Positions 1 to 42,714 of a stretch of DNA of 64,000 nt are shown piece after piece. The translations under genes were made by a program, and so were the position numbers. The notes beneath the pieces were generated by a model. It had not been told where the DNA came from. It ran no database searches and saw only the letters and a program-made list of their open reading frames with translations. Numbering within the stretch: position 1 is the first letter of the stretch; every line of letters begins with the position of its first letter. The stretch is from Escherichia phage vB_EcoM_F1: sequence record NC_054912.1. One strand, given 5' to 3'.

Positions 1-191
1 ATTAGCCGTGCATTAGGAGCAGTGCACAAAACTTTGCATCCTTTGAATACGCCTTTTTGCAATTTGTATTGCTTGGGATAAAATTCGCTCAAAATGTTAT
101 TATTTGCTAAAATTTCAAAATGATTCACCAATTTATTTTTAATAGTTTTTGGTGAAAAATAAAGATATTCGAAAAGCTGTGTGTCTGTCAT
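1..191 (-). CDS. hypothetical protein, N-terminal part only (gene runs off window start)
   Basis: ATG at 191-189 overlapping the stop of the upstream gene (ATGA); frame stays open to position 1; begins MTDTQLFEYLYFSPKTIKNK. Confidence 0.4.
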   Translation of the reverse strand, partial: MTDTQLFEYLYFSPKTIKNKLVNHFEILANNNILSEFYPKQYKLQKGVFKGCKVLCTAPNARL

Positions 192-730
192 CATTGCATT
201 CCGATTACGAAAAACTGTGGACGAGTAATACCACCAATACAACATTTAATATTACAGCAGCAGTGTACAGTGTCAATATGGACACTATAAATCTTATCCA
301 TATCAGGAGATTTGACAGGCTCATCAATTATATACAAAATTCGCGAAAGCGATAAACCTCTGAACTTGCTTCCTTTATTACCGATAAAACTGCGCACAGA
401 ATCAGTAAATAAACGAAAACGTATATCATCATTAGAATAACGCGAAAATTCCTTTTTGATGCTATTTGCAGAAATTTTAGCGTAAGCTGAAGTATTAGAA
501 AGAACAATAACTGTTCCACCGTCATACAACCAATTAGCGGCAAAATTAGTTACTGCAGTTGATTTACCGGATTGACGTCCACCATCTAGTCGAAGTGTGC
601 AATACTGCTTAAGTAAGTCTTCAAATGGTGGGATATAATCGTTTTTACAAATTTCTTCTACTCTAGCATCAGAATGGTGTGTAAAAGCATTCATCAGGGA
701 TAGATAAGGACCAGTTAAAAATGTTCTCAT
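191..730 (-). CDS. hypothetical protein with Walker A-like (GGRQSGKST) and Walker B-like (LYIIDEP) motifs; possible small P-loop NTPase
   Basis: 179 aa ORF with ATG start; P-loop motifs read from translation; odd Cys-rich C-terminus. Confidence 0.45.
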   Translation of the reverse strand: MRTFLTGPYLSLMNAFTHHSDARVEEICKNDYIPPFEDLLKQYCTLRLDGGRQSGKSTAVTNFAANWLYDGGTVIVLSNTSAYAKISANSIKKEFSRYSNDDIRFRLFTDSVRSFIGNKGSKFRGLSLSRILYIIDEPVKSPDMDKIYSVHIDTVHCCCNIKCCIGGITRPQFFVIGMQ

Positions 731-882
731 TTCTTCTCTCTAAGTTTGGGCCATTCCGTGGCGCATGAATTGTCCATTTCTGTATTTACCCATTACCGCA
801 CTTGGGCTCGACCTTATTACAGGTTGGCGGGAATCCCTCACAAAATCATGAGGTCCAGGTTGTTCCCATATTTCTTATTTGC

Positions 883-1356
883 TTATTTGAATGATTTAAC
901 GTACTGAATAGAACCTTTACTATTCACGAAAGCGATTTTACCATTTTTATTATACATGGTAGCAGTACGCTGATATCCATAAGTTTGCTTACCAGATTGA
1001 TAACCAACTAATGCGAAATTATCTTCACCCATTTTATTCTGTTTAGCGCGAATGCGTTCATGACCATGTGCCATAAGAACCTTAGCATCACCCGTTGCAA
1101 TGGATCTACGAGTTTTTTCATCTTCAACTGTATTAACAAAGTCGTCAAATGAATCAAATTTAGCATGAGATTTATTATACAGTTTTCCATCTACTGCATA
1201 ATTATATCCTTGTACATCCATCTCAACTTCTGTACCATCATCCAATACAGCAGTGATTTTCTGTCCTTTTTTAAATTTCAAAAGATCAGTAAAAGATTCA
1301 GCAATAATTTGAGAATTAATAGCTGCTTCAGTAATAAATTCTTGATATGTTTTCAT
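883..1356 (-). CDS. internal-protein-like head protein with capsid-targeting-sequence-like N-terminus
   Basis: N-terminus MKTYQEFITEAA matches T4 internal protein CTS pattern; position next to lysozyme e as for T4 ipIII; 157 aa (T4 IPIII is longer). Confidence 0.6.
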   Translation of the reverse strand: MKTYQEFITEAAINSQIIAESFTDLLKFKKGQKITAVLDDGTEVEMDVQGYNYAVDGKLYNKSHAKFDSFDDFVNTVEDEKTRRSIATGDAKVLMAHGHERIRAKQNKMGEDNFALVGYQSGKQTYGYQRTATMYNKNGKIAFVNSKGSIQYVKSFK

Positions 1357-1393
1357 GTGTTTCCTTTAAATATTTTAATTAGTAACTGTGAAT

Positions 1394-1423
1394 ATACTAT
1401 CACAGTTTTAGGAGAAAGTAAAC
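1394..1423 (-). promoter_or_regulatory. early-type promoter (-35 GTTTAC, 18 nt spacer, -10 TAGTAT) overlapping a stem-loop, upstream of the IP-like gene
   Basis: minus-strand GTTTAC at 1423-1418 and TAGTAT at 1399-1394; inverted repeat aactgtga/tcacagtt 1384-1407. Confidence 0.45.
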
Positions 1424-1427
1424 AACT

Positions 1428-1958
<531 letters not shown>

Positions 1959-3616: not shown

Positions 3617-4193
3617 ATTCTCTACATTCCTTAACAAATTTTTCTAGTAATAAATCGCTTTCAAAATTGGGATTTTCTACGAATTTATCAAAAAGATCAT
3701 CAACAATAGTTAAGATATTCTTTTTGCTAAGAATACGTTTATTTTCATGCTTCGTTTCAGAGTCAACTATAAGAGTAAAGAAATATTTCTTTCCCTGAAA
3801 TTTTACCGTAGTATCAATATAAAATAAATTTGACTTTTGTAAATTACGTTTAAACCATGCGTCACTTAAACTATAAACACCGAGATAATCAAAATCGTCA
3901 TTTAAATAACAAACTGTCCATTCAGGAGAAATGAAATCAGTAAATTCAACATCAAAATCACATGTTAATGAATGAATTGATTCAATACTGTTAATAAGTA
4001 TTCCAGGACGTATTAAAGACTTTTTACCTCTGGAAAATCTTCCAGAAAGACTTTCATTAGTTTCATATGAAGAACCCCAATAATAATTACGCCCTTCTGC
4101 CATACGTTTAAGAGCATTTAATAATTGGTCTGGAACATCAACTTGTCTTTGGAACTCTTCAAACATTGAATTGAAATCATTTTGCATTCTCAT
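3585..4193 (-). CDS. hypothetical protein
   Basis: 202 aa ORF, ATG start with GGAG RBS after a GC hairpin. Confidence 0.55.
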   Translation of the reverse strand: MRMQNDFNSMFEEFQRQVDVPDQLLNALKRMAEGRNYYWGSSYETNESLSGRFSRGKKSLIRPGILINSIESIHSLTCDFDVEFTDFISPEWTVCYLNDDFDYLGVYSLSDAWFKRNLQKSNLFYIDTTVKFQGKKYFFTLIVDSETKHENKRILSKKNILTIVDDLFDKFVENPNFESDLLLEKFVKECREYVKTITIPSK

Positions 4194-4214
4194 TTCTATT
4201 TACTCCAAGTAATA

Positions 4215-4228
4215 GGGGCCGAAGCCCC
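4215..4228 (-). other. GC-rich stem-loop (ggggc-cgaa-gcccc)
   Basis: inverted repeat read directly; near-identical 24-mer recurs at 45675-45698. Confidence 0.5.
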
Positions 4229-4234
4229 TTATCA

Positions 4235-4828
4235 TTATTTCAGAGAATTAATGTATTCCTGAACATCGGCAGAGGTAGTTTCAACCCCAGAAATATTACC
4301 ATTAAAGGTTTCAACTCGAGCAAGGGTATCTTCAATATCAACCTTAGTCAGTGCTGCAATTTCAACTACATCATCGGCAGTACTAATTCCAAGGGCATTT
4401 GCCGCACGAGTTTCACGGATATATTCCAATTTAACTGCAAGCTCTTGACGAGCATCATCTAACTCAACTACTTTCTTGGCGATTTCAATTCGCATTTCAG
4501 CATAACCGTCAGCCTTAGTAGTCAACTGCTCAGCTGTTCGACGATATAGTAAACCGAGTTTAGCATGCATTGTTACATCTTGACCTTCGGAAAGAAGTTT
4601 ACGAATTTCACGCTCTTTTGATTCAGCCTGTCGATTCTTTTCGACAATAAGTTCACGAATACGTTTTTCTTCGTTAATAGATTTAACAGAAGCAGTTTTT
4701 AGATCTTTAATTTTATCAAGTAGTTTTGCTGCTGCAGCAGTATACTGTTCTTCAACAGATAGATTTTTAGCCATAGCAGAACCAAGTTTAGTGCGAATAA
4801 ACTCAACAATTTTCTTCAGTGTGTTCAT
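4235..4828 (-). CDS. coiled-coil protein, PspA/IM30-like candidate
   Basis: 197 aa, all-helical composition, N-terminal amphipathic segment [15 protein letters not shown] resembling the PspA N-terminus; own early promoter. Confidence 0.55.
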
Positions 4829-31573: not shown

Positions 31574-34711
<3,138 letters not shown>

Positions 34712-41148: not shown

Positions 41149-42714
41149 ATGACTATCAAAACTAAAGCTGAACTTTTGAACAAATGGAAGCCATTACTGG
41201 AAGGTGAAGGTTTACCGGAAATTGCTAATAGCAAACAAGCGATTATCGCTAAAATCTTTGAAAACCAGGAAAAAGATTTCCAGACAGCTCCGGAATATAA
41301 AGACGAAAAAATTGCTCAGGCATTCGGTTCTTTCTTAACAGAAGCTGAAATCGGTGGTGACCACGGCTACAATGCTACCAACATCGCTGCAGGTCAGACT
41401 TCTGGCGCAGTAACTCAGATTGGCCCGGCTGTTATGGGTATGGTACGTCGTGCTATTCCTAACCTGATTGCTTTCGATATTTGTGGTGTTCAGCCGATGA
41501 ACAGCCCGACTGGCCAGGTATTCGCAATGCGCGCAGTATATGGTAAAGACCCGGTCGCTTCTGGTGCTAAAGAAGCATTCCACCCAATGTATGGTCCAGA
41601 TGCAATGTTCTCTGGTCAGGGTGCTGCTAAGAAATTCACAGCTCTGGCTGCTAGCACACAAACCACAGCAGGTGATATCTATACTCACTTCTTCCAGGAC
41701 ACTGGTACTGTGTATCTGCAAGCTTCTGCTCAAGTAACAATTAGTGCAAGCGCAACTGATGCAGCTAAATTAGATGCTGAAATTAAGAAACAAATGGAAG
41801 CTGGTGTACTGGTAGAAATCGCTGAAGGTATGGCTACTTCTATCGCTGAACTCCAGGAAAGTTTCAACGGTTCTACCGATAACCCATGGAATGAAATGGG
41901 CTTCCGTATCGATAAACAAGTTATCGAAGCTAAATCTCGTCAGTTGAAAGCTGCTTACTCTATTGAATTAGCACAAGACCTTCGCGCTGTTCACGGTATG
42001 GATGCTGATGCTGAACTGTCTGGTATTCTGGCTACCGAAATTATGCTGGAAATCAACCGCGAAGTTGTTGATTGGATTAACTACTCCGCTCAGGTTGGTA
42101 AATCTGGTATGACCCTGACTCCGGGTTCTAAAGCTGGTGTATTTGACTTCCAGGACCCAATCGATATTCGTGGTGCTCGCTGGGCAGGTGAATCCTTTAA
42201 AGCTCTGTTGTTCCAGATTGACAAAGAAGCAGTTGAAATTGCTCGTCAGACTGGTCGCGGCGAAGGTAACTTCATTATCGCTTCCCGTAACGTAGTTAAC
42301 GTTCTGGCTTCAGTTGATACCGGCATTTCTTATGCTGCACAAGGTCTGGCTACTGGCTTTAACACTGATACTACCAAGTCAGTATTTGCTGGTGTTCTGG
42401 GTGGTAAATACCGTGTATATATCGACCAGTATGCTAAACAGGATTATTTCACCGTAGGTTATAAAGGTCCGAACGAAATGGATGCTGGTATTTACTATGC
42501 TCCATATGTAGCTCTGACTCCGCTGCGTGGTTCCGATCCGAAGAACTTCCAACCGGTAATGGGATTCAAAACTCGTTACGGTATCGGTATCAACCCATTT
42601 GCAGAATCCGCTGCTCAGGCTCCGGCTTCTCGCATCCAGAGCGGTATGCCTTCTATTCTGAATAGCCTTGGTAAAAACGCTTACTTCCGCCGTGTATATG
42701 TTAAAGGTATCTAA
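41149..42714 (+). CDS. 23: major capsid protein gp23
   Basis: 521 aa, codon usage typical of highly expressed genes, T4 order. Confidence 0.95.
   Translation: MTIKTKAELLNKWKPLLEGEGLPEIANSKQAIIAKIFENQEKDFQTAPEYKDEKIAQAFGSFLTEAEIGGDHGYNATNIAAGQTSGAVTQIGPAVMGMVRRAIPNLIAFDICGVQPMNSPTGQVFAMRAVYGKDPVASGAKEAFHPMYGPDAMFSGQGAAKKFTALAASTQTTAGDIYTHFFQDTGTVYLQASAQVTISASATDAAKLDAEIKKQMEAGVLVEIAEGMATSIAELQESFNGSTDNPWNEMGFRIDKQVIEAKSRQLKAAYSIELAQDLRAVHGMDADAELSGILATEIMLEINREVVDWINYSAQVGKSGMTLTPGSKAGVFDFQDPIDIRGARWAGESFKALLFQIDKEAVEIARQTGRGEGNFIIASRNVVNVLASVDTGISYAAQGLATGFNTDTTKSVFAGVLGGKYRVYIDQYAKQDYFTVGYKGPNEMDAGIYYAPYVALTPLRGSDPKNFQPVMGFKTRYGIGINPFAESAAQAPASRIQSGMPSILNSLGKNAYFRRVYVKGI

Follow-up and report, generated by a model that had tools for sequence, protein, structure and literature searches.

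The P-loop reading frame beside the Ip4 gene of Escherichia phage vB_EcoM_FN: an orthologue of T4 vs.8, and a structured RNA motif upstream of it

At one end of the window (the whole stretch of 64,000 nucleotides that was analysed), a reading frame with Walker motifs adjoins a gene resembling those of internal virion proteins, which raises the question of what it encodes and whether it is read in the right frame. An earlier note, made from the sequence alone, had described it as a P-loop-containing ORF where T4 carries internal protein genes, with an uncertain frame at its 3' end and an odd Cys-rich C-terminus.

Gene identity, locus and reading frame

The window is identical (100% match) to bases 64001-128000 of Escherichia phage vB_EcoM_FN (FN), MZ170041.1. 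The ORF is present exactly as the earlier note gave it, at 191..730 on the minus strand, with an ATG start, 179 amino acids and a TGA stop at 191-193, and MZ170041.1 annotates it as hypothetical protein QYW00487.1. Its product is 96.6% identical to T4 Vs.8 over all 179 residues and matches the phrog_1488 profile with E 1.1e-79 (protein 3-179 on profile 2-177 of 177); the gene name vs.8 is used in the RB32, ime09 and T4 annotations. Homologues of Vs.8 are present in 1008 phage records; the family, which accounts for 50 clusters in a set of 1.84 billion representative proteins, is found in phages only. ORF 191..730 is the FN orthologue of T4 vs.8, a genuine coding gene running from M1 (MRTFL) to Q179, and, in agreement with the note, it is neither ipII nor denV. 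The gene had been annotated before, is non-essential and represents no anomaly.

The gene order is vs.7-vs.8-denV-ipII-ipIII-e in T4 and vs.7-vs.8-Ip4-e in FN, where denV and ipII are missing from this locus and Ip4 stands in place of IpIII. Since T4 has the same gene in the same relative place, the FN ORF is no replacement for internal-protein genes, contrary to what its description as lying where T4 carries them implied; the two phages differ in the genes upstream of vs.8, not in ORF 191..730. The adjoining gene is that of the internal virion protein Ip4 (883..1356, minus strand; DUF7412, phrog_3155). Ip4 begins with MKTYQEFITE and Vs.8 with MRTFLTGPYLSL, which bears out the reported absence of a capsid-targeting sequence (CTS) from the ORF. 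Because it lacks this prohead-protease-cleaved sequence of the MKTYQEFI.E type, Vs.8 is not an internal protein like IPI, IPII, IPIII or Ip4, and it has no IP-family matches. In the other direction, vs.8 is the first gene of the minus-strand block vs.8-vs.7-vs.6...vs.3, and the order nudE-e-[ip/denV]-vs.8-...-Gly_radical(vs.6)-regB-vs-tk persists down to 24-29% identity; the FN gene has its place in this early block after e/ip/denV and before vs.7-vs.6-regB-vs-tk.

The 5' part of vs.7 occupies 1..194 on the minus strand and continues beyond the window. Its ATG, at 194-192, overlaps the vs.8 stop by 4 nt (ATGA), and the same overlap occurs in T4, in the Karamvirus KMB20 and in Klebsiella phage Roth01, the record of which gives no genus. 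This arrangement suggests, from sequence, translational coupling of the two genes, and in closer T4-like phages Vs.8 would probably act with Vs.7. A homologue search with Vs.7 returned only 9 proteins, mostly fragments, and Vs.7 as an obligatory or universal partner was rejected, distant Vs.8 homologues (L007 and L009) having unrelated downstream genes.

The doubt about the reading frame came from overlapping ORFs in alternative frames. Such ORFs do exist, at 205..327 and 328..543 on the minus strand and at 149..355 and 312..440 on the plus strand, with lengths of 40-71 amino acids, but coding support for them is absent. Among six close vs.8 genes the variable sites fall at the three codon positions of the annotated frame as 19/15/69, and in the last 49 codons as 8/4/23; since this third-position bias follows the vs.8 frame, the alternative ORFs are unsupported. 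At the very end of the protein, the strand FFVIGMQ (residues 173-179, 194..214, minus strand; model strand E172-176) is retained in homologues at 24-40% identity, and G177 and Q179 are invariant among 23 closer homologues. This conservation up to the stop, together with the bias in the tail, confirms the frame to the 3' end and removes the suspected uncertainty, and in the comparison with relatives that the note had proposed it speaks against a frameshift. A wrong 3' frame, or a chance ORF with coincidental Walker motifs, would find its only footing in the short overlapping ORFs; set against a sequence conserved over its full length in more than 1000 phage records, a C-terminus kept in distant homologues, codon-position bias that includes the tail and detection of the T4 Vs.8 protein by proteomics, it has practically no probability.

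The upstream spacer and its RNA motif

Between Ip4 and vs.8 lies a non-coding spacer of 152 nt (731..882, minus strand), in which the upstream frames are closed in FN. The T4 reference CDS of vs.8, in contrast, comprises 219 amino acids, its start being placed 120 nt further upstream so that a 40-residue extension reaches into the conserved spacer, and N-terminally extended versions are also annotated in RB32 (189 aa), KMB20 (254 aa) and P0001 (195 aa). A TAG closes the frame of the T4 extension in FN, where the other upstream frame is displaced by 1 nt. We rejected the extension as coding sequence: the frames used differ between phages, FN has stops in both of them, and the differences in spacer length are not multiples of 3. 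Judging from these sequence comparisons, the T4 reference start very probably lies 120 nt further upstream than it should. By our arithmetic the CRISPRi-ART guides for vs.8, at T4 64887-64937, are placed ahead of the conserved start (64792) by 95-145 nt, and their 'Not Fit' call therefore says little about Vs.8.

Within the spacer, about 49 nt at 781..829 on the minus strand form a conserved structured RNA motif, matched by a covariance model at 70.7 bits (E 1.7e-19). It consists of a P1 closing helix, a P2 hairpin of the form ACCU-GUNNNA-AGGU and an almost invariant 18-nt strand, CGAGCCMAAGUGCGGUAA, and it shows covariation; an alternative helix pairing GAGCC with GGNUC was rejected, covariation being absent from it. 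The element GUGCGGUAA may resemble parts of two other RNAs, RNase P RNA and the 530 loop of 16S. Searches of E. coli genomes and of 185,579 prokaryotic genomes did not find the motif, and an Rfam search of the spacer gave no family at E<=1. The minimum free energy of the whole spacer is no better than that of shuffled sequences (z = 0.82), and neither a sigma-70-like promoter nor a terminator-like site was found in 731..882. The motif is a feature of the context, outside the protein, although the T4 reference annotation reads it as part of vs.8. Because it is conserved, covarying and common to unrelated lytic coliphages, we regard it as the more novel object at this locus; it is previously undescribed, and its sequence had been mistaken for coding.

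The predicted NTPase and its possible role

The Walker A and Walker B-like motifs that had drawn attention to the ORF are real, lie at the places given for them and are conserved among 23 and 37 homologues. Walker A, read from sequence, is GGRQSGKS (residues 50-57, 560..583, minus strand) and follows the pattern GxxxxGK[ST]. The Walker B strand with its catalytic Glu, ILYIIDEP (residues 131-138, including D136 and E137; 317..340, minus strand; model strand E131-136), has the form hhhhD followed directly by Glu and aligns with D255-E256 of the T4 large terminase gp17. Just before it stands a nearly invariant RG, R124-G125 (356..361, minus strand), aligned with gp17 R245-G246. Ten residues (D49, G50, G51, R52, Q53, S54, G55, K56, E137 and P138) are invariant in the 23 homologues down to 39% identity, and across 37 members, down to 20% identity, conservation reaches at least 90% for G51, R52, Q53, G55, K56, R113, R124 and G125. 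Conserved family-wide are Walker A as DGGRQSGK[ST], Walker B as ILYIIDEP, R113 and R124-G125; in some distant members the Walker A Lys is replaced by His.

An AlphaFold model of Vs.8 (pLDDT 82.1, pTM 0.83) has one alpha/beta NTPase domain; in its secondary structure, helices alternate with five strands, the first of which is followed by the P-loop. The homology and fold search that the earlier note had recommended returned RecA-like NTPase folds and profile homology to the terminase large subunit (TerL) ATPase, in agreement with its reading of a P-loop NTPase-type protein. The best Foldseek matches in the PDB are the SF1 helicases DSH9, SLFN11 and RecD, the P74-26 TerL ATPase and phi29 gp16; as TM-scores to solved NTPases are only 0.4-0.5, the specific affinity to TerL rests on profile comparisons of moderate strength. 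Vs.8 matches a PHROG of terminase large subunits with E 1.9e-6. The best PDB match of the family profile is T4 gp17 (E 2.8e-5; Vs.8 28-141 against gp17 141-263), and hhalign against the phage's own TerL (window 32879-34711) gives a probability of 92.5% and E 4.8e-7, pairing GRQSGKS with SRQLGKT, FRGLSL with VRGNSF and LYIIDE with MIYIDE. Single-sequence and family-model searches were less telling. Pfam and NCBIfam have no model over threshold for Vs.8, with AAA_14 best at 17.3 bits (cut-off 27) and nothing in NCBIfam; Pfam Terminase_6N reaches 14.2 bits (cut-off 22) and is matched, below threshold, by 17 of 37 family members. PADLOC gave marginal ATPase matches only (PtuA, E 0.0087), and a PDB search with the single sequence gave insignificant matches only (TcpA coupling protein, E 0.055). 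The prediction for Vs.8 is thus a stand-alone P-loop NTPase of one domain, most likely belonging to the ASCE division because the Walker B Asp is directly followed by Glu, and a remote homologue of the N-terminal ATPase core of gp17.

This kinship, seen also in the weak PHROG and Pfam terminase matches and in the 'terminase large subunit' label of the Klebsiella phage Roth01 protein (PQ657785.1), might be taken to mean that Vs.8 is a second, functional large terminase or packaging ATPase. However, Vs.8 stays below the Terminase_6N threshold and stops at residue 179, only a single strand beyond Walker B, with neither a lid subdomain nor a C-terminal RNaseH-like nuclease, and for want of the nuclease domain it is not a terminase. 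The phage already has a complete TerL (Terminase_6N, E 5.9e-57; Terminase_6C, E 9.3e-33), and vs.8 is early and non-essential rather than a late essential packaging gene, whereas gene 17 tolerates no insertions. This reading is effectively refuted and keeps only a trace of probability. Another name in public records, 'endoribonuclease' (P0004, P0006, H48 and H50), is unsupported and has virtually nothing to recommend it: Vs.8 matches neither REGB_T4 (PF10715) nor any nuclease family, its predicted fold is that of an NTPase, and regB is a separate gene downstream. As other non-RegB genes of the cluster bear the same label, it looks propagated from nearby regB.

The Cys-rich segment HCCCNIKCC (residues 156-164, 239..265, minus strand) is real as well, albeit as a lineage-specific variable loop and not as a feature of the family. 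A function-defining metal site (Zn or Fe-S), possibly linked to the glycyl-radical neighbour Vs.6, might be suspected from the 5 Cys and 2 His that FN has within 14 residues (H151, H156, C157-159, C163-164), from the near invariance of H151 among closer homologues and from the conserved position of vs.6 (Gly_radical) nearby. We consider such a site unlikely, since the Cys positions are conserved only among close, Tequatrovirus-level relatives, distant members having 0-2 Cys, and the loop is the part of the model with the lowest confidence (pLDDT about 51, and below 50 for residues 165-168). Moreover, the known glycyl-radical activases are radical-SAM enzymes and none is a P-loop protein.

As to its role, a literature search on vs.8, vs.7, P13318, NP_049732 and T4p119 found no functional study. 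Both the RNA and the protein of T4 vs.8 are early, the gene being classed as 'early-RNA_early-Protein' (PMC9697503, supplementary files 4 and 6); under laboratory conditions T4 can do without it. In the portion of the T4 transposon data drawn on here, insertions occur at 59 of 59 TA sites of vs.8, with 0 reads in gene 17, and a comparison of two independently made T4 libraries gives log2FC 0.01 for vs.8; it is not among the T4 hits that the main text of the source names for RexAB, RnlAB, CBASS, DarTG1, DarTG2 or minimal medium. T4 vs.8 is not the anti-Thoeris-IV gene; expressed singly, it did not inhibit type IV Thoeris. The same early cluster holds an Acb2 domain in vs.4 and the counter-defence genes TadIV-1 (vs.3; PMC13243611) and AdfM (tk.4; bioRxiv 10.1101/2025.11.20.689424).

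In this setting, one may speculate that Vs.8 is an early mimic of the terminase ATPase that acts by binding, either as a decoy or inhibitor of terminase-sensing immunity or as a modulator of gp17 or gp16. Some host immunity systems, namely the Avs-type sensors, sense the large terminase, and remote homology to the gp17 ATPase core, early expression, the company of Acb2, TadIV-1 and AdfM and restriction to phages would all fit. However, a protein serving purely as a decoy could do without the catalytic residues K56, D136 and E137, yet all three are strictly retained; a TerL look-alike made early should set off terminase sensors instead of blocking them; and over 111 columns only about 17% of positions are identical to gp17. 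We hold this proposal to be improbable, and find just as improbable its extended form, in which the look-alike, produced by T4-like phages within the first minutes of infection so as to interfere with whatever recognises or uses the TerL ATPase (TerL-sensing immunity, or packaging under early control), is governed by the upstream RNA motif at 781..829.

We favour the NTPase itself as the working part. Vs.8 would bind and hydrolyse ATP or another NTP, as its motifs and model suggest, and would most likely do so as a homo-oligomer in which R124, a candidate arginine finger, completes the active site of the neighbouring subunit in trans. R124 corresponds to gp17 R245, the position of the proven arginine finger of P74-26 TerL (PMC5727402). 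The terminal FFVIGMQ strand could possibly be a motif-III-like phosphate sensor, by sequence resemblance. Our guess at the role, drawn only from the gene neighbourhood, is an accessory early function, such as host take-over or counter-defence, rather than packaging. We consider the explanation as a whole (a genuine vs.8 orthologue encoding a TerL-related P-loop NTPase, putatively oligomeric and with an accessory early role) to be likely.

For ORF 191..730 itself little changes, as it was correctly called and is the already annotated orthologue of T4 vs.8, and the interpretation that first singled it out is partly supported. The description of Vs.8, on the other hand, is sharpened beyond 'conserved hypothetical' to a predicted P-loop NTPase, most likely ASCE and related to the TerL core, and this reading offers direct mutational targets in K56, E137 and R124. 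The field served by the points on vs.8, the start codon and the RNA motif is work on the 'dark matter' of T4.

Comparison with known systems

The nearest known counterpart is T4 Vs.8 (T4p119, NP_049732.1, UniProt P13318, PHROG 1488), encoded on the same strand and in the same early-gene block, with vs.7 downstream and the conserved spacer upstream as in FN; further upstream, T4 has denV-ipII-ipIII and FN has Ip4.

With N-subdomain I of the gp17 ATPase (Terminase_6N; PDB 3ezk, 2o0h, 3cpe), Vs.8 has three elements in common: a P-loop of the form R-Q-x-G-K-[ST], an RG that precedes Walker B by about 12 residues, and a Walker B of the type hhhhDE that includes the catalytic Glu. In contrast to gp17, it has no counterpart of residues 1-140, of anything past the aligned end at 265 or of the nuclease, and gp17's adenine-binding Q motif is not retained.

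Domain 1A of the SF1 helicases (DSH9, 8jx6; RecD/RecD2; SLFN11), which gave the best PDB matches in Foldseek (E 3e-4 to 2e-2), has a RecA-like core, Walker A and a DE Walker B in common with Vs.8, and the strand with G and a terminal Q that follows Walker B in Vs.8 may resemble SF1 motif III. SF1 helicases, however, have two RecA-like domains and accessory domains, whereas Vs.8 has a single domain of 179 residues; its fold matches span the 1A domain only, and a match at sequence level is absent.

Small stand-alone P-loop proteins (about 140-185 aa) of T4-like, Aeromonas/Vibrio and jumbo phages, for example BFVD A0A1B0VVW7, A0A2I6PFN6, E1A261 and B3FJV4, have the size and the predicted fold of Vs.8 (TM 0.5-0.8). 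The closer of them keep the Vs.8 motifs, whereas the distant ones share 12-25% identity and in some cases lie in another genomic context, as with L008, located between topoisomerase and rII genes.

Identity, reading frame and start of the ORF

Window 1-1500 is 100% identical to MZ170041.1 64001-65500 of Escherichia phage vB_EcoM_FN (FN), a Tequatrovirus (T4-like). The ORF reported in the earlier note is present there as described (191..730, minus strand, 179 aa) and is annotated as hypothetical protein QYW00487.1. It is already known as vs.8, the name it bears in RB32, where the order is vs.7, vs.8, Ip4 and e. The T4 Vs.8 protein is 96.6% identical to the FN product over all 179 residues; the ORF had been placed where T4 carries internal protein genes, and this placement is wrong, as T4 has the very same gene. 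The claim that it does not encode an internal protein stands. Homologues of the 179-aa protein were found in 1008 phage records by tblastn, and the match of FN Vs.8 to PHROG 1488 ('unknown function') spans the whole length (E 1.1e-79).

The reading frame at the 3' end had been considered uncertain. In an alignment of 23 homologues, down to 39% identity, all are collinear with Vs.8 from M1 to the last residue, with F173, G177 and Q179 invariant, and the FFVIGMQ ending is still kept to the stop when the set is widened to 37 sequences, some as little as 20% identical. A comparison of six close vs.8 genes puts the variable sites at 19/15/69 for the first, second and third codon positions in the annotated frame, and at 8/4/23 in the last 49 codons, the very part in doubt. 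The overlapping ORFs in alternative frames do exist, but are chance ORFs because this codon-position bias, including that of the tail, fits the annotated frame. Furthermore, the T4 vs.8 product has been detected in a time-resolved transcriptome and proteome, where both vs.8 and vs.7 are classified as 'early-RNA_early-Protein' (PMC9697503, supplementary files 4 and 6).

The T4 reference CDS of vs.8 is 219 aa long and starts 120 nt further upstream, within the spacer between Ip4 and vs.8. This extension (NC_000866 64793-64912; 5794-5913 of L004, our T4 locus) corresponds to window 731-850, which is conserved non-coding spacer. Extended forms are also annotated in RB32 (189 aa), Enterobacter phage KMB20 (254 aa) and the public record P0001 (195 aa, N-terminus MDNSCATEWPK..), in frames that differ between records. 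In FN, a TAG closes the T4 extension frame, and the MDNSC frame ends at a TGA one base off register with the vs.8 ATG; stops in the region of the T4 extension frame are also found in most relatives. Spacer lengths differ between phages by non-multiples of three, and the protein start MRTFL/MK.(F/Y)LT is conserved in all lineages of both the 23- and 37-sequence sets. On these grounds we rejected the extension as coding sequence and conclude that the 179-aa form is the real vs.8 product, the T4 reference start very probably lying 120 nt too far upstream. The start also matters for a CRISPRi-ART screen that scored vs.8 as 'Not Fit' (PMC11879866, supplementary file 15), with guides that bracket the annotated start (T4 64887-64937). 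By our own arithmetic, the conserved start (T4 64792) is 95-145 nt downstream of them; thus the real ribosome-binding site of vs.8 was not targeted, and the score is weak evidence.

Walker motifs, predicted fold and similarity to the large terminase

All 23 sequences of the first alignment share the Walker A of Vs.8, D49-G-G-R-Q-S-G-K56-[ST]. Walker B, I-L-Y-I-I-D136-E137-P138, has four invariant residues (I134, I135, E137 and P138) and two with a conservation of 90% or more (Y133 and D136); elsewhere in the protein, R113, R124-G125 and P171 are near-invariant. The odd Cys-rich C-terminus pointed out earlier (HCCCNIKCC, residues 156-164) is indeed present in FN, but is restricted to close relatives, distant family members having zero to two Cys in this region, and it is the least confident part of the AlphaFold2 model. 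It is a lineage-specific loop and not a defining feature, although a local Zn site in Tequatroviruses is conceivable.

The AlphaFold2 model, built from the 23-sequence alignment, has a mean pLDDT of 82.1 and a pTM of 0.83. Two N-terminal helices are followed by strand 45-48, the P-loop, helix 53-69, strand 73-78, helix 81-96, strand 107-111, helix 112-117, the Walker B strand 131-136, helix 144-158, a variable loop and strand 172-176. Foldseek matches in the PDB are RecA-like NTPase domains, with TM-scores of only 0.4-0.5: the SF1 helicases DSH9 (E 2.8e-4), SLFN11 and RecD/RecD2, the P74-26 large terminase ATPase domain and phi29 gp16. Many uncharacterised proteins of 140-185 aa from T4-like, Aeromonas, Vibrio and jumbo phages matched among predicted viral structures. 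Pfam gave only sub-threshold matches (AAA_14, 17.3 bits; AAA_30; Terminase_6N, 14.2 bits, where the cut-off is 22), and PHROGs a 'terminase large subunit' match (E 1.9e-6). The best PDB match of the 37-member profile is T4 gp17, the large terminase (TerL), with an E of 2.8e-5 and Vs.8 28-141 aligned to gp17 141-263. The phage's own TerL (window 32879-34711; Terminase_6N, E 5.9e-57, plus Terminase_6C) is matched by the same profile in hhalign with a probability of 92.5% and an E of 4.8e-7, pairing GRQSGKS with SRQLGKT, FRGLSL with VRGNSF and LYIIDE with MIYIDE. These homology and fold searches, which the earlier note had proposed, together with the conserved Walker motifs, uphold its P-loop NTPase reading. 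Only 50 clusters were found at E<=1e-3 when 1.84 billion representative proteins were compared all-against-all by HMM; thus Vs.8 represents a small, phage-restricted family.

Vs.8 is predicted to be a minimal P-loop NTPase in which every catalytic element that acts in cis is present. It would belong to the ASCE division given the Asp-Glu of Walker B. RecA-like domains that occur singly normally form a complete active site only with the help of another subunit or domain. Because Vs.8 is a lone RecA-like domain, and its near-invariant R124, located after the third helix and ahead of the Walker B strand, aligns with gp17 R245, it may act as a homo-oligomeric ATPase in which R124 is a candidate trans-acting arginine finger. 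The G-x-Q that ends the protein beyond its final strand presumably resembles helicase motif III. Vs.8 itself was rejected as a terminase because it has no nuclease domain, is expressed early rather than late, and is dispensable. As to the last point, T4 vs.8 is classed as 'Non-essential' since all 59 of 59 TA sites carried transposon insertions, and two independent libraries differed by a log2FC of 0.01 (both in supplementary file 7 of bioRxiv 10.1101/2025.11.20.689424).

A probable RNA structure in the spacer upstream of vs.8

At 731-882, the 152-nt spacer has a higher G+C content than its surroundings. It is found in conserved form in 1115 phage records, mostly without annotation. Unrelated phages share its core, which is intergenic in every case; among them are Vequintavirus MaxTheCat, the 45-kb phage Ivi and contigs of 39-148 kb. 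The core is co-oriented with the flanking genes wherever there is annotation (FN, MaxTheCat and Ivi), the remaining contigs being unannotated. Its 16 distinct versions could be aligned with no gaps, and the motif of ~49 nt (781-829, minus strand) was tested as an RNA model with a closing helix P1, a P2 hairpin ACCU-GUNNNA-AGGU and an almost invariant 18-nt strand CGAGCCMAAGUGCGGUAA; a 2-bp P3 may also form. All 16 versions can form the innermost P1 pair, using five pair types between them, with a covariation score of 0.257 against 0.086 in shuffles (0/500 as high); a rival helix showed no covariation.

A covariance model found one copy in the window, at 781-829 (-) with 70.7 bits; across the fetched loci it also found 42, of which 38 are distinct. 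Each of these 38 has the innermost P1 position paired (AU 18, UA 8, CG 6, UG 5, GC 1), with a covariation of 0.292 against 0.092 (0/500 shuffles as high). Support for this pair is good but not conclusive, because the 38-copy alignment is model-fitted and a slide of +1 also scores 0.231, the latter owing to a bulge in one lineage. A weak, truncated match at 42547-42571 (+) (14.3 bits, E 0.061) retains P1 and CGGUAA only, with 26 model positions deleted, and is probably due to chance.

Some phages carry two tandem copies ~110 nt apart upstream of vs.8, as in KMB20 (L005 3767-3815 and 3881-3927) and two further fetched loci (L040 5200-5248 and 5089-5135; L043 831-880 and 917-965). The second copy is more divergent and holds the only compensatory P2 change seen (GCCU/AGGC). 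Outside T4-like phages the motif is not adjacent to a vs.8 homologue, and in Klebsiella phage Roth01 and locus L024 it lies upstream of an Ip gene. The spacer matched no Rfam family at E<=1, and no copy of the motif was found among 5,426 E. coli genomes or 185,579 prokaryotic genomes. Candidate roles are those of a leader, of an intercistronic element for processing or stability, or of a binding site for a protein or ligand. The RNA motif is a more novel object than the ORF, whose interest, as an already annotated vs.8, seems low to moderate.

Gene neighbourhood and comparison with T4

The order nudE, e, [ip/denV], vs.8, small gene(s), Gly_radical (vs.6), ..., regB, vs.1, vs and tk is kept from nudE to tk even where Vs.8 identity is down to 24-29%; one distant family member is located outside it. 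The vs.7 gene (5' part at window 1-194, minus strand; 3865-4194 of the FN locus L001) has an ATGA overlap with the end of vs.8 in FN, KMB20 (a Karamvirus) and Roth01, and unrelated genes take its place in distant relatives. Vs.7 had no match in the Pfam-A copy searched, and PF26834 is a precomputed Pfam domain for its homologues. It has two G(P/V)FKG-type repeats (GVFKGCKVL.., DGPFKGLIT..), which we take to be reminiscent of KOW/SH3-like motifs.

Product names at this locus can mislead, as in PQ657785.1 (L006, Roth01, 3992-4525), the public records P0004/P0006, KP869101.1, OP870147.1 and MZ170041.1 65428-65922. Homologues of vs.8 are labelled 'terminase large subunit' or 'endoribonuclease', the FN soluble lysozyme e (window 1428..1922; MZ170041.1 65428-65922) 'baseplate hub + tail lysozyme', and FN vs.6 'pyruvate formate-lyase'.

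The early cluster also holds vs.4 (Acb2/Tad1 hairpin domain), vs.3, which is TadIV-1, and tk.4, given as AdfM in bioRxiv 10.1101/2025.11.20.689424. Purely from this company, one might guess at a role of Vs.8 in counter-defence or host take-over. When Vs.3-Vs.8 were expressed singly, type IV Thoeris was inhibited by vs.3 alone (PMC13243611), and vs.8 is absent from the main-text conditional hits for RexAB, RnlAB, CBASS, DarTG1, DarTG2 and minimal medium (bioRxiv 10.1101/2025.11.20.689424).

The interval between vs.8 and e (window 731-1427; L001 4731-5427) is a hot spot of shuffling, with the conserved spacer on its flank. It holds only Ip4 in FN (883..1356; DUF7412/phrog_3155), and Ip4 plus denV in the T4-evolved relative T4_ev151. 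In T4, by contrast, the order is vs.7, vs.8, denV, ipII, ipIII and e; FN thus differs from T4 in that denV and ipII are missing from this locus and Ip4 replaces IpIII.
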